From IMG/VR virus record IMGVR_UViG_3300012665_001179: a DNA stretch of 64,000 nt, one strand, 5' to 3'. This DNA comes from an uncultured virus (IMG/VR IMGVR_UViG_3300012665_001179). Its lineage: Duplodnaviria; Heunggongvirae; Uroviricota; Caudoviricetes. Shown piece after piece: positions 1,930-39,616 of the stretch. Below the pieces are notes generated by a model. The model saw nothing but the letters and a program-made list of their open reading frames with translations. It was not told the origin of the DNA and did not search any database. The position numbers and the translations under genes were made by a program. Every line of letters starts with the position of its first letter. Position 1 is the stretch's first letter.

Positions 1930-1937
1930 TATTTATA
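1930..1937 (-). promoter_or_regulatory. T4-type late promoter TATAAATA upstream of gp22
   Basis: Plus-strand tatttata at 1930-1937 is an exact match to the T4 gp55 late promoter consensus, intergenic, 26 nt upstream of the gp22 start. Confidence 0.8.
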
Positions 1938-19888: not shown

Positions 19889-22800
19889 TATCCAAACACC
19901 GTATCTAAACTGTTTGTAGTTGAATTATAGAATTGATATACTATACTAACGTTAGATGTGTTTGAGAAACCTACTCTATTACCAACATAAACACTATCCG
20001 AAACACCAACGCCACCAGTAACCATCAAAGTACCTGTATTAGGACCTGTTGAAACTATGTTTGATGTAATGTTTAAGTTACCACTTATAGTATCACCAAC
20101 TTTTAAAACTCTATTGTTTGCAGCTGTGAACGCACCGTTAGCATATACTGCTGCGGAGTTTGCGGTTGTGAACCCACCGTTAGCATATACTGCTGCGGAG
20201 TTTGCAACATGATTCGGAGTATTAGCACGTAAGAATGCTGAGTTAGCATAATTTGCAGCACTAGTAACATTGTTAGCAACCGTAAATGCACCATTAGCAT
20301 AGTTTGCAGCACTTGTTACGTTGTTAGCAATTGTAAATGCACCATTAGCATAGTTTGCAGCACTGTTAGCTACATGACTCGGAGTATTAGCACGTAAGAA
20401 TGCTGAGTTAGCATAATTGCCAGCATTAACTGCTTTACCATCTGCTGTTGATGCATTATCGTCTGCTGTATTAGCCTTAGTAAATGCACCATTAGCATAG
20501 TTCGCAGCACTAGTTACATTATTTGCAGTTGTAAATGCACCATTAGCATAATTACCAGCACTGGTACCTTTGGCGTCAGCTGTATTGGCTGTGTCATATG
20601 CTAAGTTAGCTTGTATTCTAGACCAAACATCAGTAGAACCAGAAGCCGCAGAATTAGCTAAAGTGAATGCAGCATTAGCATAATTACCAGCATTAATTGC
20701 ATTTGTGTTAGCTGTATTTGCTGTAACGTATGCACCATTAGCATATGCGCCAGAACTTGCAGCTTGATCTAATGCAGTATTAGCATAAGCAAACGCAGTA
20801 TTTCCGTAAATACCAGAAGTGACTAAATCTGAAGCTACACTGTTAGCTTTAGCAAAAGCACCGTTAGCGTAACTTGATGCTCCTATTAGATTATAAGAAT
20901 CCGTATTCGCTAAAGCAAATGCTGCGTTAGCGTATAATCCTGCACTAACCGATTTAACATCTGCTGTATTGGCCGCAGTAAAGGCACCGTTAGCATAGTT
21001 ACCAGCTGAATTTGCTTTCTCGAATGCTGCATTTGATAATGTTGATAACAAAGTACCATTATTAAAATAGTAGTTATCAGTATAGATTGCATCAACATAA
21101 ACATTGCCTTGAATACCTACACCACCAGCAACTGTTAATGCACCGGTTGTTTTTGATATACTAGGAACAGTTGGTACAATAACAACATTATTAGCTGCCG
21201 TTATTCTCATCACTACATGTTGATCGGCAAAACCATTAGCCGTGAATACAATGTCGTTAGTTAAACCAGTACCTATAATTACATTACCACCACCCGTATA
21301 TGTATTTCCATAAACAAGGAAATAACCATCATTAGGTTTAATTATATCAAAACCTTCATAATCGTAAGTGCTACTTGCTAAACCAATATCTAAGTAAGTA
21401 TCAAGTGCTGTTCCATTATCAGCTGTGATAAACAGGTCGCCAGATGAATTGGGACCTGGATTAATATTCTGAATTCCAATTGCAGAATATCCATCATAAT
21501 TAGCACTAACTTGGAATACAATCTGTGGTTGAGTTAGATATCCTGAAGGTATACCAGCATATAACGCATTAAATCCATTTGCAGCATATCCAAAGAAACT
21601 ACCAGTATTACCAGAAATAGCAACAGAAGTTACGTTGCCTGAATATGAAATATTTCCAGTAACAGTAAGGTCACCAGTAACATTAACATTACCTGTTATT
21701 GTACCACCAGCAGTATTGAATTTAGTATTTGCACGATCATATGCTTCTTGTGCTAAAGTGCCAGAGGCATTCGCCTTGTCAAAGGAAGCGTTAGCTGTGA
21801 TATACGCACTATTAGCATAACTTCCAGAAGTAACAGCTCTACTATCAGCATTTGCAGCATTTGTATTAGCAGTGTTGGCTTGAGTAAATGCACCATTGGC
21901 ATAATTAGACGCATTGTTAGCAACTGCAAAGGCACTGTTAGCATATCTACCAGAAACTATCGCATTTGTGTTTGCGGTGTTTGCACCTGTAAATGCACCA
22001 TTAGCATAATTAGATGCGTTGTTAGCAACTTCAAATCCAGCATTAGCATGATTGTAAGCAGCATTAGATTGTATGAATCCTGCATTTGCAGTTATGTACG
22101 CACCATTAGCATATACATCAGCAGATTGTAATGCTATATTTGCGTAACTGGTGCCGTCATTAGTTAACTGCCAATTATCTACAGTTTCATTCCAAAGTAA
22201 AGATACATTTGGTACACCACCACGGTTTACTTTAATTCCAGAATCTTCAATAGGAATATCAAATAAAGTTAATTCAGAATTTAATAGTATAGTATTAGAA
22301 CCGACACCTAAGTCTCCAGTAATAATTACATTGCCCGTTACTGTTCCGCCAGAACTACTAAATTTACCGTTAGCAACCGCAAAGGCAGCATTAGAATATG
22401 ATGCTGCGGAGTTTGCAGCAATAAAAGAAGCATTAGCATATATTGCAGATGAATTAGCAACACTAAATCCTGAATTAGAATATGATGCTGCTGAATTCGC
22501 AACAGCAAAAGCAGAATTGGTATATACTGCGGCTGAATTAGCTACTGTAAAAGAACTATTAGAATATACTCCCGCAGAATTAGCGGCAACAAATGAACTA
22601 TTCGAATAAGATGCTGCGGAATTGGCTACTTCAAAAGCAGAATTAGAATATATTGAAGCTGAATTGGAAGTTACAAAGGCAGCATTAGCATATACTGCTG
22701 CCGAATTCGATGTCACAAAGGCAGCATTAGCATATATCGTGGCAGAATTAGCAGTAATGAAAGAAGCATTAGCAGTATTCGAAACACCTGTACCTCCAGT

Positions 22801-25260: not shown

Positions 25261-25593
25261 TTATCTCGTGACATTAGGTAATACTGTTATAATACCTTCA
25301 AATATTCGAGTTATAGCACCTGCTCCATTATCTATCTCTACATCATATACGTATCTTCCTGCGGTTAAATTTGCGGTGTTAGCAGCACTCATAGACATGG
25401 TGATTTCGCCACTACCTGGTGATGTAACTGAAACTGTGAAGTCTTGTTTAGTGGAAGAATAATACGATTTACGCATTTGTGATCTGGCAGTATATCCAGA
25501 TAGATTTTGACTAACTCCAGTACCATCACTTACCGTGATAACAGTATTAAAAGTCGCACCTTGTTCTAATGTTAGTTCTACGAATTCAGCCAC
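25261..25593 (-). CDS. Small beta-sandwich virion protein (fibre adaptor-like)
   Basis: 110 aa: LEQGATF...NLSGYTARSQMRKSY...GEITMSMSAANTANL.AGRYVYDVEI...RIFEGIITV.P.VTR, a pattern common in T4-like aquatic phage fibre regions; GTG start with GGAG SD. Confidence 0.75.
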   Translation of the reverse strand: MAEFVELTLEQGATFNTVITVSDGTGVSQNLSGYTARSQMRKSYYSSTKQDFTVSVTSPGSGEITMSMSAANTANLTAGRYVYDVEIDNGAGAITRIFEGIITVLPNVTR

Positions 25594-25643: not shown

Positions 25644-26207
25644 CTAATCTGTTCCTAAAAATAAATCTACAGGCAAACATAATCTATGATTTGAAGAACA
25701 AGCACTAACATAATGATACACAAAGCTTGGAAATACTATAAAATCTCCCATCACCGGTTGATATTGTATAGGTTGAAAAATATTCTGAAATTCTAAAGGA
25801 TATCCTCGATTCGAATTGTTTCTAGGATCCGTAAATATAAGGCTTCCACCCTCATTTTGTTCACCCGTTAAGATATAAAAAACGGCACTTAAATGTGCGC
25901 CAGAATGATTATGACTAGGTAGACTGGACTGGTTAAACCAAGATTTCATTTCACAATCGAAATCATCTAAATTTTGATGAAAGATTTCATTCAAATATAA
26001 TTTAAAAGTTGGATAAACTATATTATTTTTAAAACTCAGTACACATTCATTATCACACTCAAATAAATTAGAATCTTTTATGGTGTTATCTTCATTAAAA
26101 TTTGGAGTAGAAAAAAATGCATTAGCTAAATTTTCTAAAATTTCAGTGTCTTCTATTTTTCCACGATAAAAACTCGTAGTCCAAAATTCATTAAATCCTA
26201 AATTCAT
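25644..26207 (-). CDS. Putative 2OG-Fe(II) oxygenase (HxH...H type)
   Basis: HNHSGAHLSAVFYI, GGSLIFTDPR, GDFIVFPSFVYHYV and a distal Arg (HRLCL). Confidence 0.85.
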   Translation of the reverse strand: MNLGFNEFWTTSFYRGKIEDTEILENLANAFFSTPNFNEDNTIKDSNLFECDNECVLSFKNNIVYPTFKLYLNEIFHQNLDDFDCEMKSWFNQSSLPSHNHSGAHLSAVFYILTGEQNEGGSLIFTDPRNNSNRGYPLEFQNIFQPIQYQPVMGDFIVFPSFVYHYVSACSSNHRLCLPVDLFLGTD

Positions 26208-26618
26208 TTATTTATCCTCAATGTTTACCATAAATTCTTCCATAAAATACTCTTTAATATCAGGAACAATTCCTAAAGTCTCATCAAAATCTAAACCAAT
26301 TATTTTTAAAATGCCATCATAGATATCTTTACCATTCTCATATGTTACGAAGTAAGGATCATTGTTAAATAATAAAGAAGGGTCATTCAAAACTTCATAG
26401 AAATTTTCTCCAAAATATTTACTAATCCATCTAGCATAACATATACCTACAACATAACTTTTTGCTGGATAAACCCAACCTAATTCAGTAGTTGTAAAAT
26501 ATTTTATAGAAGATTCTACGATATTATCATCAATTACAATATTGTGCAATTTTAAATCATCATCATGATTCTTATTTAATCTATGAAATATGTCTTGTCT
26601 AATTTTCCACTCTTTCAT
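26208..26618 (-). CDS. Hypothetical protein in the radical SAM/oxygenase cluster
   Basis: 136 aa, abuts both neighbours; YPAKSY and L.DP.LL..NDPYF motifs; no family recognised. Confidence 0.7.
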   Translation of the reverse strand: MKEWKIRQDIFHRLNKNHDDDLKLHNIVIDDNIVESSIKYFTTTELGWVYPAKSYVVGICYARWISKYFGENFYEVLNDPSLLFNNDPYFVTYENGKDIYDGILKIIGLDFDETLGIVPDIKEYFMEEFMVNIEDK

Positions 26619-27139
26619 TATTGCATCACCATATTAATAACTATTCTTTTTTTATCTGTGTTTATTTCATCGACTCTATGAATAAGTTCTGAAGAATGAT
26701 TCATCAAAACAACATTCCCATTTTTAGGATAATAATGTTTTTCTTCACCATCAAAAGATTTAATTTGTAAACTTCCACCATCTCCAATATCTAAATCTGA
26801 TTGATAACATAAAGCTTGTATTGTTATATTTTCTTTTTTATCTGTGTGCCAATTATTGCCATTATCGTCTATACCGTAGTAACAAATAGAACGCATAATT
26901 TTTAAATTGGGATAATATACTTCATATCTAGGTAACTGTGTATCTTTTAATATCTTTGACGCTGAAAGACATAAACTTGTACCGTAAAGTCCTACTGTAT
27001 TAGTTGTTTGATTCCATTTTATATTGGAAGGCACAATATCTTTCAATCGTTCATCATGATAACAATAATAACCATACAACATAAGGCTAAGGTGCATATC
27101 ATCCGAATTAAATTCTTTATTAGCTTCTATTATTTTCAT
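26618..27139 (-). CDS. 2OG-Fe(II) oxygenase
   Basis: HxD (WHTD), GGSLQI, PKNGNVVLM, distal His (IHRV) and Arg (KRIVI). Confidence 0.8.
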   Translation of the reverse strand: MKIIEANKEFNSDDMHLSLMLYGYYCYHDERLKDIVPSNIKWNQTTNTVGLYGTSLCLSASKILKDTQLPRYEVYYPNLKIMRSICYYGIDDNGNNWHTDKKENITIQALCYQSDLDIGDGGSLQIKSFDGEEKHYYPKNGNVVLMNHSSELIHRVDEINTDKKRIVINMVMQ

Positions 27140-28034
27140 ACCATTTTATGAGATGTTTAAACCCATTACAACTTTCATCTAAAGACTTTACTTCACGTAA
27201 ATGTTCAGATAAACAATTACCATAATACTCACAACTAGAACAATATTTATTTAAACCAACACGATGTTTTTCTTTATCACACCATTGCCAATATTCTCCT
27301 AAAGTATCATATTCTAAAAAGAATTCGTTATCGTTTAAGTCGAATTCCAAAACACCATATTTTCCATTTGGAGTAATGTAAATATGATCGTCTGAAAAAC
27401 TGTTTCGTGTTTTATCTAATACCGAATCTAATAAAGATTCATTTACAAATTCAAATTTTTTATCAGTATGAAGTATCCACTTTTTGACAAAATCTTCAAA
27501 TGAAGTGTAAGGAACATCAAATTGATTTGCTTGATTTGAACTATAAGGTTTTATTTCGACAGAAACTAAATTATCAAGCATGTTGAACATATCAATCATC
27601 TCATCAACATCTTTCTTCATAACATCTGAAGAAGCCAATACCAATATAGAAAATGGTTTATTCAGTAATGCCATGTTTTTAAATACTCGTTCGGAATCTT
27701 CTCTAGCATCAAAATCATAACTAACTGTTGTGTAAACTCTATCATCAAGAGTGATATCATTTACCATCGATAAATTGGTAATTAAACTTATATCATCAAT
27801 ACCATACACATTCAAAAGAGTTATTAAATCATTCCAATATTGTTTAGGTAATAGACCTAATTCTCCACCATACAAGTCAACTTTATCAATATTTACATGT
27901 TGTGAAATTTCCGATAGAATTTCATTGAGTCTATCTAATTCTAATAATTTTTTATCTGATAATTGTTGTTCGGTAAGGTAACAAAATTTACATCTAAAAT
28001 TGCAATAGTACCAAGGATTGATCGACAGTATCAT
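27120..28034 (-). CDS. Radical SAM protein with partial SPASM-like C-terminus
   Basis: CNFRCKFC (CxxxCxxC), YGGEL, and C-terminal CSSCEYYGNCLSEH...SC. Confidence 0.92.
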   Translation of the reverse strand: MILSINPWYYCNFRCKFCYLTEQQLSDKKLLELDRLNEILSEISQHVNIDKVDLYGGELGLLPKQYWNDLITLLNVYGIDDISLITNLSMVNDITLDDRVYTTVSYDFDAREDSERVFKNMALLNKPFSILVLASSDVMKKDVDEMIDMFNMLDNLVSVEIKPYSSNQANQFDVPYTSFEDFVKKWILHTDKKFEFVNESLLDSVLDKTRNSFSDDHIYITPNGKYGVLEFDLNDNEFFLEYDTLGEYWQWCDKEKHRVGLNKYCSSCEYYGNCLSEHLREVKSLDESCNGFKHLIKWYENNRS

Positions 28035-29059
28035 ATTCCATTTGCTTTTAATATATCAGGTGCCAGTGTTTTCATTTTCTTACAATGTGTAGAATTCATA
28101 TTATATGTTTTATGGTCTTTGATTGTTTTTTTACATCCATTACATATTTCAAACATAGGACAAGTGTAACAATCATCTGTCATAGTCTGCAACTCTAAAA
28201 TATTCCTAATAGGAAATATTTTTTTGCCTTTCATTTCTTGATTAAAATCAATACTGTATTCTCTATCATCACCAAAAGCACCGCAGGAATAATAATCTCC
28301 TGAAGGCTGAAGCGTTCTAATAGTAGAATCACATTCACGATTTTGAGGACAACAAGTTGATTGTCCTATTAAACGTTTCATCATTTGTTTAGTATTAAAT
28401 TCCCACGGATGTAATCCTTTTTTCCATATCTCAACATATATCTCATATATGTTTGCTAGTAAATATGGTTTGCCTTGTTGCCCCATTATGATGCCTTTAA
28501 ATTTAACTGGGGGACCACTACTCATTGCATAGTTAAGTTTACATTCAACTCCCATGCGTTTTGCAAGCTCTACATTTTTGATAGCGTCATGTTCATTTTC
28601 TTCTGTTATAACGCTAATAAAATCGGGTCTATAACCACAATGTTCTAACATAGCATCGCTACATTTCCAAAAATCTTCTTCAGTAAATTCGGATAGATCA
28701 CCTTTCAATCTACCTCCACCATACTGAAAAGATGTGGTCACTCCCATTCGTGGATGATTAAATAAGTCTTTCCATTTATTAGGATTTTTATAAAATGGCC
28801 AAAGATTACTTGTAAAAGAAATAGTGGCGTGAGAATCAATATCATCTAAGTGTTTAATTAAATCCCAATAGTATTGAGGATCCATCATCAATGGATCACC
28901 ACCATTAACAATTATAGTTTTGGTTTCTGGAAAACGTTTTAAGAATTGGTAGATGTAATCTAAATCTAACTCTAAAGATTTATCTTCGGTAATATTTGTG
29001 CTAGAACAAAAAGTACATTTAAAGTTACATCGTTCTGTAGGTTTAATTATTAAGTCCAT
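28031..29059 (-). CDS. Radical SAM/SPASM protein
   Basis: IKPTERCNFKCTFC, NGGDPL, CCPQNREC...YSC and CYTCPMFEICNGC...HC. Confidence 0.94.
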   Translation of the reverse strand: MDLIIKPTERCNFKCTFCSSTNITEDKSLELDLDYIYQFLKRFPETKTIIVNGGDPLMMDPQYYWDLIKHLDDIDSHATISFTSNLWPFYKNPNKWKDLFNHPRMGVTTSFQYGGGRLKGDLSEFTEEDFWKCSDAMLEHCGYRPDFISVITEENEHDAIKNVELAKRMGVECKLNYAMSSGPPVKFKGIIMGQQGKPYLLANIYEIYVEIWKKGLHPWEFNTKQMMKRLIGQSTCCPQNRECDSTIRTLQPSGDYYSCGAFGDDREYSIDFNQEMKGKKIFPIRNILELQTMTDDCYTCPMFEICNGCKKTIKDHKTYNMNSTHCKKMKTLAPDILKANGI

Positions 29060-29060
29060 T

Positions 29061-30128
29061 TCAATACCAAACTATATTATCTTCTAATTTCTTAGCAGGA
29101 CTTATACACTCATTTATTTTTGATATTTTCATTAAAGTATGTATTCCTCGTTCCGCACAATCAGGCACCAATTGGCAATTTCGACAAGCATCATTATTTG
29201 ATGCCCAATCTAATTGTTCTAAGAATCCCGAAAGATATGTATTATATAATCCATTAAATGTCCATGAGTCTTTAACTTCAAAAGCTTCATCAAAAGATGC
29301 TAGACCTTCTAATAAAAAAGGAGTCATATAAAGCTTTCCAGATTTGTAAAAAATGTCCCAATCTTTACCTTCATGTGGCAACAACTCTGCAATTTCTATA
29401 TCTTTACCGTATTTTTTACGAGCTCTAGTAATATACTCTTTGAGTGTCATAACGGCATCATAAAAATTTTTTCTATTTTTTTCTTGACTTAAATCGGTTC
29501 TGGTATGAGGTAATATTATATCTGCCGTTAATCCTTCTAATATAGAAGACTTATAAGTTTTTAATATAAGTTCTTCAGTGATGTTAGTATTATTTTCTTT
29601 GTCATATATGGAACTTGTTTCATAATTAATTAACAGATAAGTTTTAGTATGTTTAACATTAGGCATATTTTTAAGTGTTAATTCTATACGTCTTCGTATT
29701 CTATTCACATATTCTTCATTATCAATATGATATGCCTCGAATGGTACAACAAACTTTACCAATCCACCATACAACAACCAATTTAATTGTTGTCCTAGTT
29801 TAATGTAATTTTCATTGAAAGGATCTAAAAAAGCACAATTAATTGATGTTTTTAAAAACTTCTTTGATAAATTTTTAATCTTAGAACTAGTTAATACCAA
29901 ATCTCTATTAACACTAGTCATGATATCTGTCGGTCCTATTTGCAAATTCATAGGACGAAATTCTGATTTTGCTAAATCATCAACCAAATAAAAAATTCTA
30001 TCAAACTCATCATCAGAAGGCCAACTATTGCCATCTTTATCAATAGAACAACCGGTGCAATTATAGTTGCATCCGTTTGTGACTTCAAGTGTGAAGTCTA
30101 TCAATTTTTTAATATTATCTTCTTTCAT
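29061..30128 (-). CDS. Divergent radical SAM-like protein
   Basis: LEVTNGCNYNCTGC; no GGE motif (IGPTDI instead); C-terminal CRNCQLVPDCAERG...EC. Confidence 0.8.
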   Translation of the reverse strand: MKEDNIKKLIDFTLEVTNGCNYNCTGCSIDKDGNSWPSDDEFDRIFYLVDDLAKSEFRPMNLQIGPTDIMTSVNRDLVLTSSKIKNLSKKFLKTSINCAFLDPFNENYIKLGQQLNWLLYGGLVKFVVPFEAYHIDNEEYVNRIRRRIELTLKNMPNVKHTKTYLLINYETSSIYDKENNTNITEELILKTYKSSILEGLTADIILPHTRTDLSQEKNRKNFYDAVMTLKEYITRARKKYGKDIEIAELLPHEGKDWDIFYKSGKLYMTPFLLEGLASFDEAFEVKDSWTFNGLYNTYLSGFLEQLDWASNNDACRNCQLVPDCAERGIHTLMKISKINECISPAKKLEDNIVWY

Positions 30129-30718
30129 ACTATTAAAGGCTTCTTTGATTCACCGTCAATTACACTCCAACCAAACACAAGACTTGTTCTAGGAATATCT
30201 CCAAAGTAAGGTTTAACTCTATGTGTTGTGAAACCTGGAAAAACTATTAATCTATTTTGTTTAGGTAAAATATTTATGGCATTATCTGGATAATCTGCAA
30301 ACGTTAAATGCTTGTATAAAGTAAGTTCTCCTCCAACCCAATGATCGTCTCGGTAACTACTATCAATATAATATATGGCTGTAATATAACCACCTTCAGC
30401 TATGTCATGGTGAGGTTCGTATAGATGATTACCTACCATACTCTGATCGTATTTGTGTAGGTACCCCTTCTGAAGATCATTATTTTTTAGATTATTATAA
30501 TTTATATTATTTTCCAAACAATACATCCTTACCACGAGTGAAATTGATTTGAACAATTCGGATTGTGAAGATGTCATATTATTAATGTCTTGACCTTCAA
30601 TAGTTTTTGCAATTGAAGATTCAAATTTTAAATTTTCATATAATAAACTATCAGTAACAAAATTATCAATTACTTGTATCTGTGTAGTCCAGAGATTAAA
30701 TGTTTGATGGTTATTCAT
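30125..30718 (-). CDS. 2OG-Fe(II) oxygenase (prolyl-4-hydroxylase-like)
   Basis: PHHD (HxD), ITAIYYI, GGELTL, PKQNRLIVFPGFTTHRV and RTS. ATG at 30718 (ATGA overlap with the upstream stop) preferred over TTG at 30736. Confidence 0.9.
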   Translation of the reverse strand: MNNHQTFNLWTTQIQVIDNFVTDSLLYENLKFESSIAKTIEGQDINNMTSSQSELFKSISLVVRMYCLENNINYNNLKNNDLQKGYLHKYDQSMVGNHLYEPHHDIAEGGYITAIYYIDSSYRDDHWVGGELTLYKHLTFADYPDNAINILPKQNRLIVFPGFTTHRVKPYFGDIPRTSLVFGWSVIDGESKKPLIV

Positions 30719-31251
30719 TGTGGGTTTCTTATCCAAAAATCTCCATCTCTTTGAAATTTAAGATGTTTCATAGTCTGTCGATGATATGGTTCATGAGTAA
30801 TTCTTCTTTGATTCATTACAAGATGCAAACATTCGAGATGTGAGCCTGATGGGCAAATAATTTTTTTATCACCAAACATAGAGATTATATCATGCCACAT
30901 TTTACGAATAAAGGCTCTATTCTCAATAGAACTTTTACGATTCATATAACCAGCAGTTTTTACACAACTAATAATAATTTCATCATCATAAATGTGTATT
31001 AGTGCAACACCCTTTTCGATCTTTTCTTTGTCAGTGCAATGTACCCATTGAACATCATATTTACTTCTTTGGCAATCATCATATAAATCTGGATCTTTTT
31101 CTTTATCACTAAACCAGATAAAAACGTGAGCTCTTCTCGAACAAATTCTTGGAACTACTGGGTATATTATTCTTAGATAGTCTAATTGTAATTCTACATC
31201 AGACGGATATGGTGGTGAAGTAAGAATTGCTTCTTCTTCATAATCGTACAT
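30715..31251 (-). CDS. Hypothetical protein in the radical SAM/oxygenase cluster
   Basis: Frame is open to 31335, but ATG at 31251 (MYDYEEE) gives a short overlap with the upstream radical SAM stop; no family recognised. Confidence 0.65.
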   Translation of the reverse strand: MYDYEEEAILTSPPYPSDVELQLDYLRIIYPVVPRICSRRAHVFIWFSDKEKDPDLYDDCQRSKYDVQWVHCTDKEKIEKGVALIHIYDDEIIISCVKTAGYMNRKSSIENRAFIRKMWHDIISMFGDKKIICPSGSHLECLHLVMNQRRITHEPYHRQTMKHLKFQRDGDFWIRNPQ

Positions 31252-32263
31252 TGTCGATATATCTGTACGTAATTTTGTAGATACACTCATCAAGTTCTTC
31301 TCTGAATTTATAATCATGTTGCATAAAACAACCAAAGGTACATCTATCTAGGTACTCACAAGAAACACAATCATATTTTTCTAAAAATTTATCTTCTATT
31401 TCTGAATTATCCATCTTTTGTATTTTAGATGAATAGAATTTTATAACCTTTTCATCTTGAACTAAATTACCACAATTACACATAGTTCCATCAGCAAGAA
31501 CTAGTTTACTGGTTCTACAAGATGCGTAATTAGTTTTGTTATGAATCCAATCTTTGATGGGATGAACGTTCGGATAATTATCAATTAGATGTTTGAAAAC
31601 ATCTACTAACTGTTGATCTGTAGGAGCTTGAACTTCAGCAGATTCATCAGGCATGTAATAATCAAAATATATGTAATATCCTTCATTGTATAATTTTTTG
31701 AAATAAGGATCTTTATCTTTAAGTATGTAATCGATATTAGGAGAATTTAGTAACATACTAATACAAGAAATACGTTTACCAAAATATTCCATATTCTCCT
31801 TAAAGATTAAGAAGTCATTGATATTGAATCTACCACGAGGATCATAAGATGTTACGAGATTAGATTCAACATTAACAGTTTCAGAAAAAGATAATAATGA
31901 TTCTATGAGATCAATCTTATCGGTAACTAAATTAGTAACCCAATTTAGTTTTACTTTTTTATTATATTTTTTACTTAGATTTTTTATACCTACAATTAAT
32001 CCTTTATAGGCTGTAAGTAATGATGAATTAAATATTTTTGATGCAAAAATCTCGCCACCCATGATATTAAAAATTACAGAATGGCGAGTTTCTGATTGTA
32101 AGAATTTTTCAATAGGAACTAATTTTTCAATTACAGTATCAATTCCAATTTCATTTTCATGATCTTGCCAACAAAAAGAACATCTTAAATTACAATATTC
32201 GAAAAGATGTATTGTATATTCTTGCTCAGCATCACGTTTACGTTCAATAATAAAATCACGCAT
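31238..32263 (-). CDS. Radical SAM/SPASM protein
   Basis: CNLRCSFC, MGGEIF, SCR...MCNCG and CVSCEYLDRCTFGC...EC. Confidence 0.94.
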   Translation of the reverse strand: MRDFIIERKRDAEQEYTIHLFEYCNLRCSFCWQDHENEIGIDTVIEKLVPIEKFLQSETRHSVIFNIMGGEIFASKIFNSSLLTAYKGLIVGIKNLSKKYNKKVKLNWVTNLVTDKIDLIESLLSFSETVNVESNLVTSYDPRGRFNINDFLIFKENMEYFGKRISCISMLLNSPNIDYILKDKDPYFKKLYNEGYYIYFDYYMPDESAEVQAPTDQQLVDVFKHLIDNYPNVHPIKDWIHNKTNYASCRTSKLVLADGTMCNCGNLVQDEKVIKFYSSKIQKMDNSEIEDKFLEKYDCVSCEYLDRCTFGCFMQHDYKFREELDECIYKITYRYIDNVRL

Positions 32264-32265
32264 TT

Positions 32266-33360
32266 TTACAACAATCTATATTTCGATATATCTTTATTAT
32301 TGTATTTTTGGCCTAAAAAGTATTGCACTAAAGGATAATTAACGTTTAGAAAATCAATACGAGGAACTAAAGAAGTATCGAAAGGATTCTCAACAATATA
32401 TTTTATTATATCATCCAATTCTAAATCTGTAATAGATTCACGGCAAGTAATAGTAACAAATTTATTAAAACCAAAAACACTTCTATTAATTTGCATTCCT
32501 TCAAACTTTTCAAAAATGTTATATAATGTGTTCATCAATTTTATAACTTTTTCATCACTTAGTCCTTCTAAGCTACATTTACCATAAGACTTCTGTGATC
32601 TTTCCCAAATCTCATTATCGGAATAGGATTCTAATTGTTCAATAGTCTCTAAAGGATCTAAACGAGTTATGTCTACCAATTTAGGATCAATATCAAATGT
32701 GCTTAAAAATTTATGATTAGTAATATTCAATAAAACCATTTGCCGGTTATCTTCAAACATTTCTACAAACCAACGGCGTAAAAACATATGTAATGTTTTT
32801 TTCAGTTCTTCTTTATAAGAATTATCGCCAGACAAATAAGTTGATAGTAGAAATTCATACGTATGCTTTAAATTTAAAGATTTTAATGAAGTTCTATTTA
32901 CAGATTGTGCGTTTTCCCATTCAGTTTTAATATCACCTATATCGTCCCACAAAAAATTCAAATCAATACTAAACAATGGAACTAATTGTGAATTTGAAAT
33001 GATTCTTTGGTTGTAAATCGTATAGTCAACGATAGTTTTAAAACCAGCATAATCTAAATTAGGTAGTGTTGTTTTAAACCAACAAGCCATAAACTTTTTA
33101 TATGATATAGTATCACAAAAAATTATTATTTTTTTACCAGATTCATCACTAAATTCTTTTATTGTTTTTATAAATCCTAAGAAGTCATCACCTATAACAT
33201 CTTCGAAAGTTTTGCCATATAAAATTAATTTTCCCAATACGGCTTTTTGTAAAACTTCATACATCTCGTAACCGTGTTTTTCTGAAATAACAACACGGTC
33301 TAGATGATTTTCTATTCTATCATCAAATTCTAAGTAAACTTTATTAAACAGATGTAACAT
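32266..33360 (-). CDS. Hypothetical protein in the radical SAM cluster
   Basis: 364-aa ORF coupled to both neighbours; no clear family. Confidence 0.75.
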   Translation of the reverse strand: MLHLFNKVYLEFDDRIENHLDRVVISEKHGYEMYEVLQKAVLGKLILYGKTFEDVIGDDFLGFIKTIKEFSDESGKKIIIFCDTISYKKFMACWFKTTLPNLDYAGFKTIVDYTIYNQRIISNSQLVPLFSIDLNFLWDDIGDIKTEWENAQSVNRTSLKSLNLKHTYEFLLSTYLSGDNSYKEELKKTLHMFLRRWFVEMFEDNRQMVLLNITNHKFLSTFDIDPKLVDITRLDPLETIEQLESYSDNEIWERSQKSYGKCSLEGLSDEKVIKLMNTLYNIFEKFEGMQINRSVFGFNKFVTITCRESITDLELDDIIKYIVENPFDTSLVPRIDFLNVNYPLVQYFLGQKYNNKDISKYRLL

Positions 33361-34060
33361 TTTCCAATTCCTCTATTGTTTTTTGTTTGTGTAAATTGTA
33401 GGAATTTCCTTCTATCAAGCCTTCAGCAATACCATAAGTTAGTAAAAATAGCGGGTTATTCTCATTAGCCCAATAGGCATACATATTTTTACCTTTAAAC
33501 ATGTAATCATTAAAATAATGAGTATAAAATTTTAATGAATTTTTATCGGTATTATTATAAAAAGAATAAAAATTTTCATGCTTCAATAAACTGATAAAAT
33601 TAACTCCAGTTAATTCTGAAGAATTATCAGTTTCAAAAGATGAAACAAATTCCTTAAACATATCGTTTTCGATGATATGCATATTATAAAGTGATAAACT
33701 TTCTAATTTCAAAATCCATTTGTTTAAGATGTCTTTATTTTGTTCAATAAATTCATTATCTTGTAAAGGCACTAGTTGTTTTACTTGATGTAAAATATTA
33801 ATGACTGCTGATTCTAATGTATTAATATTGACAATCATTGTAGATTGTAGATAATCTTTAATCATATCATAACATTCGTCACTAGAACATCCAGTAAAGT
33901 CTATATCCGAAGGTATATCCAGATTTGAAAGATATGTTAAAAGTTTTGTTCCTTTTAAAGAACTATCTTTATATTTAATTACAAAAAAGGTTGACTTGTC
34001 ACTAAAATATTTTTTTAGATTATCAAGTGTTATGGGTGCAATAGTTTCAACAATATTCAT
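33344..34060 (-). CDS. Hypothetical protein in the radical SAM cluster
   Basis: 238-aa ORF whose ATG overlaps the stop of the 181-aa gene (TAATG). Confidence 0.75.
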   Translation of the reverse strand: MNIVETIAPITLDNLKKYFSDKSTFFVIKYKDSSLKGTKLLTYLSNLDIPSDIDFTGCSSDECYDMIKDYLQSTMIVNINTLESAVINILHQVKQLVPLQDNEFIEQNKDILNKWILKLESLSLYNMHIIENDMFKEFVSSFETDNSSELTGVNFISLLKHENFYSFYNNTDKNSLKFYTHYFNDYMFKGKNMYAYWANENNPLFLLTYGIAEGLIEGNSYNLHKQKTIEELENVTSV

Positions 34061-34605
34061 TATCTTCTTCCTCTAGCTCCGTGACATGATGAATGGCAAG
34101 ATGTGTGACAAACAGTAATTGTGATCGTAGTTGTAGCTGCTCTTGCAGTATTATACGATGATCTCAAATTATCAAAAAGTGATTCTAAACCACTGCTAGT
34201 TATTGTCGATCCTGAAGATACACCACCATTTGCTGGTGAACCAATACTTTGACCATACATTCCATAACTAAGATAAGCAACAGCTGTTTGATCGAATTGT
34301 GTACCTGAACCTGTCAACTCCAAAATAGCTCTTAACCTTCTAATAGAGGTATATCGTGCAGTTTCATTGACAAGAGTGCTGTAAATGGTTGAAGCTGTGA
34401 TTGTTCCGCCAACCGGAGAAATAGTGCCGCCTGTTACACCAATAGGTCTGCCTGCGGTTGTTCCTCCGAGATAACCCGCATCAAATTGGGAAAAAGGAAG
34501 AGCATTAGTTCCCCATGAAATTCCCGCACTGGCTGTGGCTGTCACGTAATCAGCAAATCTATCAACGATATTTTGAGGGTTAATATTATTAGTTAAGGTT
34601 GCCAT
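34060..34605 (-). CDS. Structural-like protein with C-terminal CHTSCHSSCHGARGRR tail; candidate substrate/precursor of the cluster
   Basis: 181 aa, Thr/Gly/Ser/Ala-rich, no Lys; all three Cys and all three His are in the last 16 residues (motif at 34081-34110). The ORF is clear; the substrate role is inference. Confidence 0.7.
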   Translation of the reverse strand: MATLTNNINPQNIVDRFADYVTATASAGISWGTNALPFSQFDAGYLGGTTAGRPIGVTGGTISPVGGTITASTIYSTLVNETARYTSIRRLRAILELTGSGTQFDQTAVAYLSYGMYGQSIGSPANGGVSSGSTITSSGLESLFDNLRSSYNTARAATTTITITVCHTSCHSSCHGARGRR

Positions 34606-35647
34606 TTTTTAATATCCAAACTTTATTTTTTTGTTTATTTTTTAAAAATCTCATCAAACTTTTTGGAGCTCCACATACATCATTTTGCCATTCTAGTTGA
34701 TGGCAGTCTCCACCACAATATTCAAACACATCACATGAAAAGCATCTAGGATCTCTACTACGTTCACATGATATATTTTCTATTCTTCTTTCACTATTTA
34801 TAACATCTTCCAGATTATCATTTATATGTCCAAATTGAAATTCTGGAGCAGAATTTGGACATCCTGATAATGTACCGTCAGCATTTACAGTGAATATTTT
34901 TTCTTCACAATCTCTACAGAAAGTTCCGCCTTTTAAAAAACCAGTATCAAATTTAGAGTAAATAATTTCTAAAAAATCATTGTCAAACCAATTCCTAGCA
35001 CCATATTTTTCAGACTGTTCATGTAGTTTTAGAAACCATTTATCTTGATCGACATTACTCGGAAATATTTCAGGGAATTTTTTAGCATTACCATTCTGAG
35101 TTAATCTTTCAAACGAAACTTCTTGTACACCCAATCTACGAATCCAACGTAATAATACTATAGGTTCTATGTCTAAAGTATCTTGTGTCACACTTATAAA
35201 AAGTTTTATGGTTACACCACGACTCAATAAACTTTTAACATTACTATGCCAAAGTTTATATTGTTTATTATTGGCAAATCTAATTTTAGGATCCCAAGAA
35301 GTTCCTATTCTATTATCAAAAGCTTCTTCTATGAAATCATAATGTTCTTGATCCAACTTAAATACTAAATTCGTTGTTGCTCCCCAAGTCATGGCAGGCC
35401 ACAAGTCTTTACAATTTTCCCATACATGGCGCATTTCATGAACAGGAACTAAAAACGGTTCACCACCGTGAAATTCGCAATGTATAGAATCGGAACTGTC
35501 GGGATAATATGTTCTAAAACGTTTAATCCAATCAGCAACTTTTATAGCATTCCAAAAAATTTTAGGACCATTAGTACCATTGGTGAAACAATGCTTACAA
35601 TTTAAATTGCAAGTTTCGGTAGTTTTTAAATAAAACATCCAATTCAT
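34589..35647 (-). CDS. Radical SAM/SPASM protein, most canonical of the five; candidate peptide/protein maturase
   Basis: YLKTTETCNLNCKHC, FHGGEPF, CRDC...GCP and CFSCDVFEYCGGDC...VC (CxxCx5CxxxC-xn-C). Confidence 0.95.
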   Translation of the reverse strand: MNWMFYLKTTETCNLNCKHCFTNGTNGPKIFWNAIKVADWIKRFRTYYPDSSDSIHCEFHGGEPFLVPVHEMRHVWENCKDLWPAMTWGATTNLVFKLDQEHYDFIEEAFDNRIGTSWDPKIRFANNKQYKLWHSNVKSLLSRGVTIKLFISVTQDTLDIEPIVLLRWIRRLGVQEVSFERLTQNGNAKKFPEIFPSNVDQDKWFLKLHEQSEKYGARNWFDNDFLEIIYSKFDTGFLKGGTFCRDCEEKIFTVNADGTLSGCPNSAPEFQFGHINDNLEDVINSERRIENISCERSRDPRCFSCDVFEYCGGDCHQLEWQNDVCGAPKSLMRFLKNKQKNKVWILKNGNLN

Positions 35648-36117
35648 AATTTATCTACTAAAAATTTTTCAAGACCGAAACTTAATATTAAAGATTCTTT
35701 ATAATTTGTGGCTTTATGTGGAGTATTAGAAGGTATGAATACACTTTCACCAGAAAGATACGTATTAATTTCATCTAATATCTGTAATGTTTTTTCACCC
35801 CAAATGACATGTATATAAACATCGTCCGGATCTACATGAGTTCCAAAACTTGCAGAATTTTCATAAGCTCTGAAAGCATGACAAGTCACAGCACCATTAT
35901 GTTTATATACATATTGCAATTCACAACATGTGTCATATATTTGTGCATTATATTTTTCCATACCCTCAACTTTTACGGTTTTACCGTAGTTGGAATGAAG
36001 TTGACCTAGATCATCAATATAAATTTGTCGACCTAGGTCATCCAGTATAGAAATTAACTTTTGTTCATATACCAAATCATGTTGTATAAAATTCTCAAAC
36101 TCATCAATAGTTATCAT
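35644..36117 (-). CDS. Small JmjC/cupin-type oxygenase
   Basis: SFGTHVDPDDVYIHVIWGEKT...GESVFIPSNTPHKA gives an HxD...H triad resembling YcfD/ROX-type JmjC enzymes. Confidence 0.8.
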   Translation of the reverse strand: MITIDEFENFIQHDLVYEQKLISILDDLGRQIYIDDLGQLHSNYGKTVKVEGMEKYNAQIYDTCCELQYVYKHNGAVTCHAFRAYENSASFGTHVDPDDVYIHVIWGEKTLQILDEINTYLSGESVFIPSNTPHKATNYKESLILSFGLEKFLVDKL

Positions 36118-36118
36118 A

Positions 36119-39100
36119 TTAAAGAATTAATGCTTCTATTACACTTTCTTCTTCAGTTGTTTTTGTTTCTAATGCAATAGCGAAATGATTACGTGGATTA
36201 TGTCTACCAACACCTAAAGTATCACTTGTACCGATAGGGTGACCTTTTTTGATTGCGCCTTTCACACGTACAGGTACTCGACCTTTCAGTGCAACATAAA
36301 CACCGTCTTCTAAGCCTTCATTCATTCTAAATGCAGGCTTCAATGATATCACGCCGATAGCTCTAAAGTCAACAACAGAAGCAGCAGTAATTTCCTTTTC
36401 ACCACCTATGGCCATCACAGTGCCTTCCGGATAATCTGCATCAGGTAAATATTTTTCTGCTAAGTCAGCATATCGAGCTGATGTTGCAGTGCCATTAAAC
36501 AGCGTTGCCCAAACATCAGTAGATACAGCTATATCACCTAAAACTTTTAATGCTGCTGTACCCGAAGGATCAGTTTTACTTGTTGTTGTGCCACCATCCC
36601 TAATATAAACACTATTATAGAATGTTGATGTTCCGTCACCTATACTCGGAGTACCCAACACGGTGAAAGCTAAAGCACTATTTACATTACCACCAGAAAT
36701 ATTTGTTGCAGTTGTAGCATTAACTGCTGTTGTAGCAGTTGTTGCTGTTGCAGCAGTTAATGCTGAACCTGCACTACCTGTAATACTAAATCCAAATGAA
36801 CCAGTTGCCGGCATTCTAGCCGCAGGTATTGTACCTGACGTTAGATTAGTTGCATTTAGATTAGTTAAATCTGCACTAGGAACATCAACCCAACTAAATG
36901 CTGATCCAGTCCATTGTAAGTATCTGTTAGCTGTTGTAGGAGCATCGATGAATCCTGTTGTACCCACACCAGTCTGCACTAGAATCTGTCTATTTGTACC
37001 GCCGGCAACGGCAGGTGCGGTACTACCACCAAAGTCGGTGTAAGTAGAACCATCATTCGTGAACTGCCATCTTGCTGTAGGTTCATTCCAACGAATCTCA
37101 ACGTTAGGACTTACACCTCTATCTACAACAAGTGCTGCTCTGAATAATGGATCAGCAGATTGAATGATATCATAGTTCATCACAATTCTAGCACCAGATG
37201 CACCTGTTCTAACGCCTAATAAATCAAAAGCAATGTTAGCTCTTTGTGCATTGATACTAGCACCATCCATATTTAAGGTACCGGTCATTGTACCACCGGA
37301 AGTTAACAACGAATTGTTAGCTCTCAAGAAAGCAGCATTGGCATAAAGTGCTGCGGAGTTGGCAACTGCAAATCCAGCTAAAGCCGTATTGGTGGTTGTA
37401 TTTGCTAAAATGTAAGAAGCTGAACCTGTTCCTTGTGCGGCTTCTGCGGCAAGTTGAGCAGTTGTTGCTGATACGAATCCTGAATTTGCTTTCTCAAATG
37501 CACCATTAGCATAATTTGAAGCAGCACCAGCATTGATATCTGCGGTATTAGCCTTTACAAATGCACCGTTAGCATAGAAACCTGCACTATTCGCAACATG
37601 ATTTGGCGTATTAGCAACAATGAATGCCGCATTTGCATATAACGCAGCAGAATTTGCCACGTGAGTTGGTGTGTTTGCAACTATGAAGGCTGCATTAGCA
37701 TACAATGCAGCAGAATTGGAAACATGACTCGGAGTATTCGCTTGCAAGAATGCAGAGTTAGCATAACTAGAAGCACTGTTCGATACGTGACTAGGAGTAT
37801 TTGATTGTAAGAATGCTGCATTTGCGTAATGACTTGCAGTAATAGAAATCGTATGTACCGTATTAACAGCAGCAGGAGTTGCAACATCTGTGATACTTGT
37901 ATTAGTTACTTGTGATGATAATTGTCCAGCATCGAGTATTCTGTTTAATTGTGAATATGTATTACCTGTAGAAATCTTCCACTGATCTACAGATTCGTCC
38001 CAATTAATAATAGCATTATCACCTTGAGCTCTCTTATTAATAATCGAAGCATCAAGATTTGTAGTTGTATTTGCATTCAATAAGAAAGATTGAATCTCAA
38101 AGTTTACAGTTCCAGTTTGTGTGAATGCACCTGTTACGGTTAAATTGCCGGCAATAACTACGTTAGATAAATTAGTTTTACCTGCAACTTGCAATACAGT
38201 TGTTTCAGGAGAAGCACCAGCAGCAACTCTAACTAAACCACCAGTAGTAACATCTACTAATGAGGAAACGTTTACTGTACTCACATTTGCATTAGAAGCA
38301 AATATTCTTGTTATATTACCTGTATTGATTGTCGCTTGATTGGATTGTAATGTAACAATGTTTGCTGATTGTATTGTGCTTGTGTTACCAACGGCAACAT
38401 TAAAAGTTTGATTTTCTATTGCAGCTGTTGTAATACTACCAGTACCTAAACTAAAGTTACGAATATTACCAACGTTTGCATTTGTTATTAAAATATTTGC
38501 AGTATTGATTAATGATAGATTCGAAATTAAAGTTACAACATTACCTGTCTGGTCTACCGTCATGTTTGTGACGTTAGCTCGTGTTACTGTGGCATTTCCT
38601 AAGATTGCATTATTAATCGTAGATGTATTTGAAGATAATGTTACTATGTTTGCTGAAGAATTGACTGTTAATGAGCGAACGTTAGCAACATCAAAATAAC
38701 TATTACCTGTAGCTATAATATCAACCAAGAATGCATCATTGAATACCTGCAAGTTTAACATTGTGCCTAAACCAATAAGGTTCAGAACGTCAAAGGTTGC
38801 TTGCAATGCTCTTACGTTATCTGAAGCTACATTTGATGAATTAATTGTTGATGCAAAAACTGTATTAATATAAGCTGAACCAGAATTCGCATATAATACA
38901 TTTCCTTTTTCTGCAACCGTTCCAGGCAAACGAAGAATGCCTGAGGCTGTTACGTTGTTTGCTACTGTTATATGATTACTGAAAGCAGCGTTTGATGCCG
39001 AAATATTTCTAGTTACGACTAAATCTGTACCAACAGTAACACCATTAGCCACATTTAACGAAGTTGCACCTGAACCACCAATACTTACTGTACCACCAAT

Positions 39101-39385: not shown

Positions 39386-39616
39386 TTAATTGTTCTTTTC
39401 TAAGAGAATCTGTAACATTTTTTTTATTTCGGACATGTCTTCAGTTAAGTTATTAACTTGAGATTTCAGAGTATTTATCTCTTCATTTTTACCAGATATT
39501 CTCTCACCTAATTTTTTTCTAGCTTCGTTCTCGGCCAAAACCGCACGGTTAGTAGCTAACAGTGCGGTTGTCTTGGTGTCTTTAACGAAGTGTGTACCCT
39601 CTACTTTAACTCTCAT
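39386..39616 (-). CDS. Small conserved coiled-coil protein
   Basis: MRVKVEGTHFVKD..T.ALL.TN followed by a coiled coil (EINTLKSQVNNL..DMSEIKKML); ATG at 39616 lies 1 nt after the upstream stop. Confidence 0.75.
   Translation of the reverse strand: MRVKVEGTHFVKDTKTTALLATNRAVLAENEARKKLGERISGKNEEINTLKSQVNNLTEDMSEIKKMLQILLEKNN

Follow-up and report, generated by a model that had tools for sequence, protein, structure and literature searches.

A radical-SAM and oxygenase gene cassette next to phage tail-fibre genes, and the Cys-His-tailed protein that accompanies it

We analysed a 64,000-nucleotide (nt) stretch of DNA from an uncultured tailed virus (IMG/VR record IMGVR_UViG_3300012665_001179), referred to below as the window, and in it a cassette of 14 co-oriented and mostly overlapping open reading frames (ORFs), g1 to g14, that runs on the minus strand from position 36117 down to 25644. 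The source phage is a marine T4-like myovirus and the window is its structural region, where the portal, scaffold and prohead protease, the sheath and tube, the large terminase and the neck and baseplate wedge proteins are encoded; the tail sheath shares about 50% identity with its counterparts in Pelagibacter and Methylophilales myophages. The cassette is bounded by a 1085-residue fibre gene (36119-39376) and by a 110-residue LtfC-like gene (25261-25593), and comprises five radical S-adenosylmethionine (SAM) enzymes, a JmjC-type cupin (g1), three Fe/2-oxoglutarate (2OG) oxygenases, four uncharacterised proteins and g3, a 181-residue protein with a Cys- and His-containing tail. An initial annotation, made from the letters of the window, had described a block of 14 co-oriented genes; the same ORFs were found in identical order and with agreeing coordinates, the one correction being that the block sits on the minus strand, so that the order then given runs from high to low coordinates.

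The genes are tightly packed. Between the end of the fibre gene at 36119 and the g1 start at 36117 lies 1 nt, and 11 of the 13 internal junctions are either overlaps of 1–20 nt (g1/g2, 4 nt; g2/g3, 17; g3/g4, 1; g4/g5, 17; g8/g9, 4; g10/g11, 4; g11/g12, 20; g12/g13, 1) or gaps of 0–2 nt (g5/g6, 2 nt; g9/g10, 1 nt; g13/g14, 0 nt). The remaining junctions, overlaps of 98 nt for g6/g7 and 22 nt for g7/g8, rest on doubtful TTG starts that may have been placed too far upstream.

The family labels first given to the enzymes are borne out by Pfam, NCBIfam and PHROG profile searches. All five radical-SAM proteins (g2, g6, g9, g10 and g11) contain the CX3CX2C motif that binds the SAM-cleaving [4Fe-4S] cluster, and the motif is kept in at least 90% of 78–109 relatives each, and phrog_1802, 'radical SAM domain-containing protein', matches g2, g6, g10 and g11 with E values of 1e-40 to 1e-66. 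The Radical_SAM model PF04055 (cut-off 29.5 bits) is exceeded by g10 (41.6 bits) and g11 (29.7 bits), and matches g2 (21.2), g6 (19.6) and the divergent g9 (18.2; E 0.003) below its cut-off; against the SPASM model TIGR04085 (cut-off 27), g2 scores above (36.1 bits) and g6 (20.2) and g10 (23.8) below. A full SPASM Cys set, the kind that serves two auxiliary clusters, with 7–8 conserved C-terminal Cys, is present in g2 (352 residues, 34589..35647; C13, C17 and C20 plus seven C-terminal Cys), which lies directly upstream of g3, in g6 (341 residues, 31238..32263; C24, C28 and C31 plus seven C-terminal Cys) and in g10 (342 residues, 28031..29059). Judged by their Cys patterns, g9 (29061..30128; C20, C24 and C27 plus C315, C318, C324 and C341 conserved) and g11 (27120..28034; four C-terminal Cys), with just four further Cys each, are twitch-like and not SPASM. 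In g2 the CX3CX2C motif begins as early as residue 13, and the protein has no N-terminal recognition domain.

The four oxygenases carry HxD/H...H triads. The JmjC/cupin Fe(II)/2OG oxygenase g1 (157 residues, 35644..36117) matches JmjC_2 (PF08007; 25.8 bits, cut-off 22), in a stretch that spans residues 75-116 only, and Cupin_2 (27.1 bits), and its H94-x-D96...H134 triad and K109, the Lys for 2OG, are kept in at least 90% of 50 sequences; PF08007 we take to be the family of the ribosomal-protein Arg/His hydroxylases. The Fe/2OG oxygenases g8 (30125..30736; 2OG-FeII_Oxy_3, 35.2 bits; H109-x-D111...H172), g12 (26618..27139; 28.4 bits; H98-x-D100...H154) and g14 (25644..26207; 2OG-FeII_Oxy_5, 45.5 bits; H99-x-H101...H165) all exceed the Pfam cut-off of 27 bits. 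In alignments of 11 to 109 relatives per family, all four oxygenases keep their HxD/H...H triads in at least 90% of relatives. The enzyme identities proposed at the outset thus agree with the catalytic residues, which are kept in all nine proteins, and since cluster motifs, auxiliary Cys and triads are each kept in at least 90% of sequences, all nine look active.

The protein g3 (34060..34605) ends in the tail CHTSCHSSCHGARGRR (34063..34110), whose consensus (C-H-x-S)3-R-x-R-R stands at the very C-terminus. A homology search yielded 574 homologues, all unnamed; among the best 120 of these, the three Cys-His pairs and the R-x-R-R end are all intact in 118, and the other two carry one tail substitution each. 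The conserved residues of the tail are Cys, His, Ser and Arg. Ser at position +3 of the successive CH units, which lay outside the pattern used to search for the tail, is present in 227, 209 and 228 of 249 unique proteins (84–92%). A structure model based on a 27-sequence alignment (mean predicted local distance difference test, pLDDT, 88.3; predicted template modelling score 0.80) shows a compact, globular α/β domain over residues 1-166, from whose last strand the tail departs as a flexible extension; its pLDDT falls from 57 to 44, and it is the sole low-confidence part of the model. The body is a well-conserved folded domain, and g3-type proteins in general are folded proteins of 119–434 residues; four of them carry an extra CHxx unit. 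No convincing relative of the g3 fold emerged from Foldseek (best E 0.42) or from VIA-align against 48,161 chains (best Z 4.2, root-mean-square deviation 5.1 over 144 residues). A prediction of the complex of g3 with g2, the latter loaded with three 4Fe-4S clusters and SAM, scored 0.02 and 0.00 against a mark of 0.32 and, as a control-free run, speaks neither way. In one metagenome protein of 374 residues (P0125), a Gly_rich_2 domain (PF21722) at the N-terminus precedes a g3-like part with the same tail.

No Pfam or NCBIfam family was matched by g3 or by the partner proteins g4, g5, g7 and g13. The core proteins g4 (238 residues, 33344..34060; phrog_20767), directly downstream of the tail gene, and g13 (136 residues, 26208..26618; phrog_20737), with 16 invariant residues, recur widely, as described below; g5 (364 residues) lies at 32266..33360 and g7 (about 200 residues, start codon uncertain) at 30715..31335. 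The g4 model is confident (pLDDT 88.7), and fold searches with it assign no fold: the lowest Foldseek E was 0.37, and the highest VIA Z, 5.0, covers residues 1-58 only. Profiles of g4, g13 and g5 found nothing below E 0.09 among the solved structures of the PDB, and Protein Atlas searches with g4 and g13 gave no usable lead.

Hundreds of uncultured phages carry the cassette, as do jumbo phages and predatory bacteria. Searched as a degenerate DNA pattern, the tail matched at least 123 stretches of viral contigs; together with loci from other searches, the matches listed gave 90 viral loci with a tail gene, of which 78 are non-redundant and 51 complete, with 3 kb or more upstream and 9 kb or more downstream of that gene. 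In these 51 complete loci g6 is always present (51), closely followed by g10 and g11 (49 each) and g2 (47); g4 (44), g13 (42) and g1 (40) are frequent, g5 and g14 occur in 30 each, and g9 (23), g12 (18), g7 and g8 (11 each) are more sporadic. Every one of the 51 contains three to eight radical-SAM genes, four being the commonest number. The immediate neighbours of the tail gene are g2 upstream in 54 of 72 loci and g4 downstream in 50 of 74. A megablast of the whole block against phage records gave no match; because the gene set and the tail recur across viral and genome loci, the block is more than a chance assembly.

The initial annotation had made its case depend on a CHxSCH-type gene accompanying the enzymes, and this association is found in both directions. 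In the reverse direction, 304 relatives of g10 were found in viral contigs, and the tail gene is present in 60 of the best 80 loci among them. Twelve of the 20 loci that lack it end before the g3 position, and seven others have an inverted architecture and belong to contigs that end inside or just after an array of g9 genes. The sole candidate exception (L192, 21276 bases) shows no tail gene in the 2.3 kb of sequence available upstream of its g2-like gene and carries relatives of g2, g4, g9, g6, g10, g11 and g13. Among named phages, a search with g2 gave 15 records; in the seven examined (DT01, RSL2, Atu_ph07, Phosso, SURPRISE13, RsoM3USA and FLC8), a tail-bearing gene lies right behind the g2 orthologue. 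The products of these seven genes end in CHxSCHxSCHxxRxRR, and their bodies vary in sequence and in length (178–306 residues). A tblastn search with g3 against phage records matched DT01 alone, because the g3 body diverges. In phiRP12 and phiRP31, radical-SAM genes are found in a different arrangement.

The tail gene is not always single. Two tandem copies, encoding short (124–140 residues) or long (247–309 residues) proteins, occur in 14 of the 78 non-redundant loci, a situation that resembles multi-precursor loci of peptides that are made on the ribosome and modified after translation (RiPPs). One recurrent variant consists of a fibre gene, two short tail genes (124–140 residues) and five tandem g9-type enzymes, with g6, g13, g11 and g10 on the opposite strand (among others L012, L037, L045, L046, L050, L078, L086, L089 and L091).

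The cassette is linked to a particular kind of fibre end. The protein encoded directly upstream of it in the window (36119..39376, minus strand) matches the tail-fibre family phrog_19602 and phrog_22593, and its last 130 or so residues (36122..36514) probably form a Peptidase_G2-type intramolecular chaperone autocleavage domain. This segment is the sole conserved part of the proteins upstream of the cassettes, which range from 128 to 1819 residues. The Pfam model PF11962 matches 22 of 26 aligned fibre C-terminal domains (best E 9.7e-9), the score of the window fibre itself (16.1 bits) lying below the cut-off of 25, and a profile of the fibre ends matches the autochaperone domain of phi29 gp12 (E 4e-4) and the chaperone domain of tailspike Dpo31. 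Such a G2-domain fibre ends less than 2.5 kb upstream of the cassette and on the same strand in 42 of the 68 viral loci with enough upstream sequence. At the opposite border, the LtfC-like protein (25261..25593, minus strand; phrog_1084 and phrog_3304, L-shaped tail fiber protein assembly) has counterparts downstream in many loci, where it closes the block. The fibre C-terminus had also been considered as a docking site for g3; this idea was dropped, the conserved domain being a common G2-type chaperone domain.

The same gene set is present in bacterial genomes. When the tail pattern was run against one genome per prokaryotic species, 47 contigs matched; 39 of them hold a tail ORF, and cassette genes surround it in 38, the exception being a 32-residue chance ORF in a high-GC contig. 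Twenty-seven of the 39 are labelled Bdellovibrionota (Bdellovibrio, Bacteriovoracaceae, Halobacteriovoraceae and Pseudobdellovibrionaceae), and some of these predator contigs span 1.3 to 2.8 Mb. Housekeeping genes flank the three annotated predator loci (serine dehydratase, FabH, acyl-CoA synthetase and an Mrp/NUBPL ATPase), which are therefore chromosomal and not prophage. The predator relatives of g10, g11 and g2 are close, with E values of 1e-90 to 1e-139 (about 1e-127 for g10). In a FastTree phylogeny of g10 with midpoint rooting, most predator sequences fall in one clade, with two viral contigs inside it and one sequence, L165, outside; its sister is one clade of phages, in which the T4-like, Atu_ph07 and RSL2/DT01 lines are intermingled. 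Taken as topology alone, this fits an old split between predators and phages and exchange among unrelated phages.

Here, too, fibre-like genes stand nearby. Thirteen genome loci, 11 of them labelled Bdellovibrionota, hold 17 genes within 10 kb for proteins that end in a Peptidase_S74 chaperone domain (for example L148:5077-6204 and L155:2169-3410, both on the minus strand, with 15 more); these proteins are mostly 320–476 residues long, one ORF being shorter (156 residues), and the N-termini of all 11 that were read look like type IV prepilin signals. Five such genomes (3.4–4.2 Mb) contain 3, 1, 3, 4 and 3 S74 matches, one of which adjoins the cassette in each case; by an arithmetic estimate, an S74 gene would fall within 10 kb by chance in about 1–2% of genomes. 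Fibres terminated by S74 domains are known Bdellovibrio adhesins (Caulton et al. 2024, PMC10769870), and the available portions of that paper do not mention a pilin-S74 chimera.

Cassettes were also seen in contigs binned to other taxa, namely L163 (Dysosmobacter), L168 (Bacilli metagenome-assembled genome, MAG), L173 (Flavobacteriaceae MAG) and L181 (Methanobacteriota MAG), with further copies in L143, L144, L152, L162 and L179, binned to unrelated taxa. Because fibre genes adjoin the cassette in L143, L144, L152, L162, L179 and L181, these six are probably phage contigs binned with cells. The copy in L168 (G+C 0.28, three g6-like genes) looks like a separate, Gram-positive-associated form.

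One phage that carries the cassette, Atu_ph07, has a published particle proteome, and it bears on the fate of the g3-type protein (Supplementary Table S5 of Attai et al. 2018, PMC6102473). The table lists Gp170, a 'hypothetical protein' of 31.89 kDa, with eight unique peptides and 35.16% coverage, in gel bands 1-9, most abundantly in the top band 1. Translated gp170 (P0003; L003:13044-13934) is a protein of 296 residues and 31.89 kDa that ends in CHSSCHASCHNSRSRR; its mass matches the table, and the two numberings therefore agree. Proteins of 29–32 kDa in the same data peak in bands 7-8, and the others that peak in band 1 are mostly of 75–139 kDa (PMC6102473); Gp170 therefore runs mainly at several times its own mass, which fits an assembly that is covalent or resistant to sodium dodecyl sulfate (SDS) and heat. 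The cassette enzymes, cupin and g4 homologue of this phage (Gp165-169, 171 and 172) are absent from the particle table (PMC6102473). The fibre encoded upstream, with its G2 domain, is Gp176 (L003:8596-10419); at 66.07 kDa it peaks in band 4 with proteins of 50–55 kDa (PMC6102473), a migration that fits loss of the chaperone domain. A virion-retained product, as the initial annotation had proposed, fits this proteome, in which a distant positional homologue of g3 is present and the enzymes are not.

Sequence signals around the cassette are of the T4 late type. A copy of the late-promoter-like motif TATAAATA lies inside g2 (34795..34802, minus strand), 190 nt before the start of g3; the motif is depleted in the window (two copies in 64 kb against 12.6 expected), and its other copy (window 1930-1937) stands just before the head scaffold gene. 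A second late-promoter-like motif, ATAAATA, lies at 39472..39478 (minus strand), about 96 nt before the start of the fibre gene. It is likewise depleted (14 copies against 42 expected), 13 of its 14 copies are on the coding strand, and several stand 22–47 nt before the starts of structural genes. This depletion, strand bias and proximity to structural gene starts suggest that this phage uses the late-type motif as a promoter. A late transcript running through the cassette would fit, perhaps with extra transcription of g3 from the motif inside g2; the 'late-expressed' character ascribed to the block at the outset is thus a reading of gene order and promoter-like motifs only. Scans of the window for terminators and sigma-70 promoters found neither above shuffled sequence, and a look-up of RNA runs listed none for the block.

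On balance we consider it probable, though by no means secure, that the cassette is a fibre-linked maturation kit whose client is the g3 tail, and that the matured protein enters the particle. The genes would be transcribed late, together with the abutting tail-fibre gene. In the cytoplasm of the infected cell, the SPASM enzymes g2, g6 and g10 would act on the tail, aided by g9 and g11 as one-auxiliary-cluster enzymes, and the likely products would be carbon-sulfur or carbon-carbon cross-links involving the Cys, His and Ser of the tail; the sequence kin of g2 and g10, matched far below threshold, are SPASM enzymes whose products are thioether, ether or carbon-carbon cross-links, or formylglycine. 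The oxygenases g1, g8, g12 and g14 would hydroxylate side chains, His and Arg being the obvious candidates, and the core proteins g4 and g13 may assist. The enzymes would then stay behind, and matured g3 would become part of the particle; its most likely site is in or on the apparatus of fibres and baseplate, and its form may be covalent or SDS-resistant and of high mass. That the g3 tail is the substrate, what kind of chemistry it undergoes and what role it has in the particle are what we infer from gene content, catalytic residues, synteny, the near-invariance of the tail, the linkage to chaperone-ended fibres and the presence of a positional homologue in a published virion proteome, all of which are shown.

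Several points weigh against this reading. The loci were partly picked by the tail pattern, so the invariance of C, H and R among them arises by construction. Cys and His are classical metal ligands, and metal binding alone could account for the conservation of the tail; for a tail of 16 residues nine enzymes are also many, and some may act elsewhere, on the g3 body, the fibre or another target. The named maturase families are all matched far below their cut-offs, and no reaction type can therefore be transferred from them. The upstream structural proteins of RSL2/DT01-type phages show no chaperone domain. As to the particle data, Gp170 is a distant positional homologue, the stock was purified with polyethylene glycol and the table is long, so that contamination is possible, and the band-1 peak could reflect aggregation. 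Finally, the predator homologues of g3 have no obvious signal peptide by eye, and a surface role there would therefore need an export route of another kind.

The concern over metal ligands can be carried further, into a scheme in which the tail serves a fibre accessory protein as a structural motif that binds metal (Zn, Fe, Cu or Fe-S) and is not itself a substrate, and the enzymes modify the fibre, the g3 body or a component of the host envelope. The tail has three Cys and three His in a fixed spacing, as is typical of metal ligands, a set of nine enzymes looks excessive for 16 residues, and the tight linkage of the cassette to fibre genes would be accounted for as well. Against it, the tail gene adjoins a SPASM enzyme in 54 of 72 loci and overlaps it by 17 nt in the window, the SPASM enzymes of known function mostly act on Cys-containing peptides or proteins, metal binding leaves the conserved Ser at +3 unexplained, and tandem tail genes travel with expanded g9 arrays; we regard this scheme as unlikely. 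Less probable still is that g3 is the precursor of a released product, its tail being cut off as a modified peptide (toxin, signal or metallophore) or as a cofactor derived from a peptide, as in the cases of pyrroloquinoline quinone and mycofactocin, with the body as a large leader. The conserved C-terminal core, the variable N-terminal part and the multiple copies do resemble RiPP and peptide-cofactor loci, and the R-x-R-R end could be a processing site. However, the g3 body is a well-conserved folded domain, peptides covering 35% of a full-size homologue were recovered from Atu_ph07 particles, and the cassette sits in a structural module and not among metabolic genes; moreover, Pfam, PHROG and NCBIfam searches of the block yielded no family of proteases, transporters or recognition domains, in agreement with the initial annotation, which had noted no transporter or dedicated protease.

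It is very improbable, in our view, that DNA, nucleotides or a small molecule are what the enzymes modify and that g3 is an unrelated structural gene caught in the block. Phages reportedly use radical-SAM and 2OG enzymes for base hypermodification, and g10 and g11 do show weak N-terminal matches to MoaA, viperin and QueE; yet these matches cover the shared radical-SAM core only, the full-length matches being to peptide maturases, and no nucleotide-handling family was found in the block by Pfam and NCBIfam searches. The strict co-occurrence of tail gene and enzymes in both directions, and the presence of the same set in bacterial chromosomes beside pilin-like fibre proteins, also speak against it.

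A bolder and rather doubtful extension of the maturation reading is that phages of unrelated lineages and Bdellovibrio-like predators share a kit that makes the tail a cross-linked, hydroxylated, strongly basic 'warhead', carried on or covalently joined to adhesin fibres (tail fibres in the phages, pilus-borne S74 fibres in the predators) and acting at the Gram-negative envelope during attachment or entry. If this were true, two kinds of bacterial killers would share, as a tool, the chemistry by which peptide antibiotics are made, and the warhead might be the counterpart of a host defence based on HxS repeats that blocks DNA entry.

The comparison with described systems begins with the label 'RiPP-like' in the initial annotation, which stands for the enzymology and fails for the client, a folded protein of 119–434 residues instead of a short peptide with leader and core. 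Over their full length, g2 and g10 best match SPASM maturases that act on peptides or proteins, namely PapB (E 4.5e-14), TIGR04083, anSME, DynA and YhhB, all sub-threshold; g2 has such matches to PapB, anSME, DynA and YhhB, and g10 is DynA-like from end to end. In bits against the NCBIfam cut-offs, the cassette reaches 52.4/340 for PapB, 39.9/349 for anSME, 44.1/450 for DynA, 34.5/445 for YhhB and 19.1/450 for XyeB. With the RiPP maturases PapB (ranthipeptides), DynA/DarE (dynobactin, darobactin), YhhB/XyeB/FxsB (three-residue cyclophanes) and with anSME, the cassette enzymes share the fold and the Cys pattern, the full-length alignment of g2 and g10, the adjacent substrate gene and, in some loci, its multiple copies. 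They differ in that g2 lacks the N-terminal recognition domain, in scores far below the family cut-offs, in the folded substrate and in the three to eight radical-SAM genes per locus, with no leader protease or exporter found. Of the hallmarks of a RiPP locus, the adjacency of precursor and maturase is present, and a short leader-bearing precursor, a protease and an exporter were not found. In QhpD/QhpC, a SPASM enzyme cross-links Cys residues of a small protein that stays in a larger assembly; the full-length match to TIGR03906 is weak (E 1.4e-4, 20.7 bits against a cut-off of 453), and substrate and context differ.

Two recently described systems come closer in kind. In the HXS antiphage system, HxsA, with five His-x-Ser repeats, is matured by two radical-SAM enzymes; a covalent change of +8 Da maps to SHRSS, and HxsA, once mature, works outside the cytoplasm (Li et al., Nat Commun 2026, PMC13128918, according to the portions of the paper available). 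The likeness, as far as those portions go, lies in a whole protein with basic-rich His-x-Ser repeats served by several radical-SAM enzymes, the g3 tail having three H-x-S units. The cassette scores only 25.9 against 370 bits for HxsB (TIGR03978) and 31 against 267.9 bits for HxsC (TIGR03977), however, it has no match to the HxsD or HxsA models and no peptidoglycan-binding domain, the g3 repeats start with Cys and sit at the extreme C-terminus, oxygenases are added, the number of radical-SAM enzymes is different, there is a link to virion and fibres, and the genes are phage-encoded within a structural module, whereas HXS is a host defence. In Methanococcus voltae, CrpC, a SPASM enzyme with three [4Fe-4S] clusters, installs ranthionine thioethers on the Cys-rich CrpA (Dieter et al. 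2026, PMC13692751, from the accessible part of the text). Here also a SPASM enzyme cross-links Cys of a neighbouring, protein-sized substrate; within what that part of the text describes, CrpC/CrpA differs in having one enzyme, an archaeal cell, a substrate that is Cys-rich throughout and neither oxygenases nor a link to virions or fibres, and the kinship in sequence is at the generic SPASM level. Judged by equivalog scores, which it does not reach, the cassette belongs to neither system.

In pelagimyophages, the host recognition cluster has been reported to contain radical-SAM 'gene cassettes' as a variable insert (Zaragoza-Solas et al. 2020, PMC7029224). As far as the available portions of that paper show, these are probably the same kind of block in the same place, between the VrlC-like baseplate gene and the neck genes, among tail fibres; those portions mention the presence of the genes only, without a client protein, tail motif or function. 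Jumbo-phage papers list cassette genes without comment in the parts available (PMC8066314, PMC11898562), as does PMC5468394, whose available part gives a gene list only and no prior description of the cassette; a term search in the accessible text of a jumbo-phage review (PMC7824862) gave no mention of it. No paper describing the tail motif or its function was found in the literature outside subscription journals. The cassette is real and widespread, and it is probably a form of radical-SAM protein maturation distinct from those described; new here are the two-way co-occurrence, the G2 chaperone fibre end, the chromosomal copies in predators beside pilin-S74 genes and the band-1 migration of Gp170.

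Small peptides are known to be cross-linked and hydroxylated by radical-SAM and 2OG enzymes, and for a few whole proteins this has only just been shown; a nine-enzyme kit that matures a protein of the virus particle would, if true, represent a novel type of virion maturation. Abundant marine phages carry the cassette in their host-recognition region, and the same kit beside pilin-like fibre proteins of predators suggests a shared function in attacking Gram-negative cells. Culturable carriers of the cassette are Atu_ph07, RSL2, RSF1, FLC6, FLC8, SURPRISE13, DT01 and Phosso; the tail protein is Gp170 in Atu_ph07, ORF068 in RSL2, gp72 in FLC6/FLC8 and gp065 in DT01.

Inside the cassette (window 26001-34000) the G+C content is 0.27–0.30, against 0.35–0.40 in the flanking fibre genes. 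Low G+C as a mark of recent transfer was considered and dropped, as the fibre genes, rich in Gly, Ala and Thr, raise the G+C of the flanks. Farther out on the minus strand, a second tail fibre of 1721 residues (19888..25053; phrog_13481 and phrog_4242, tail fiber) lies downstream of the LtfC-like gene, and just upstream of the cassette and its fibre gene lies a giant structural gene for a 2055-residue DUF4815 (VrlC-like) protein (39618-45785). At 47172-57773 lies the gene for another giant structural protein, of 3533 residues, which combines baseplate-wedge and repeated virion-protein modules.

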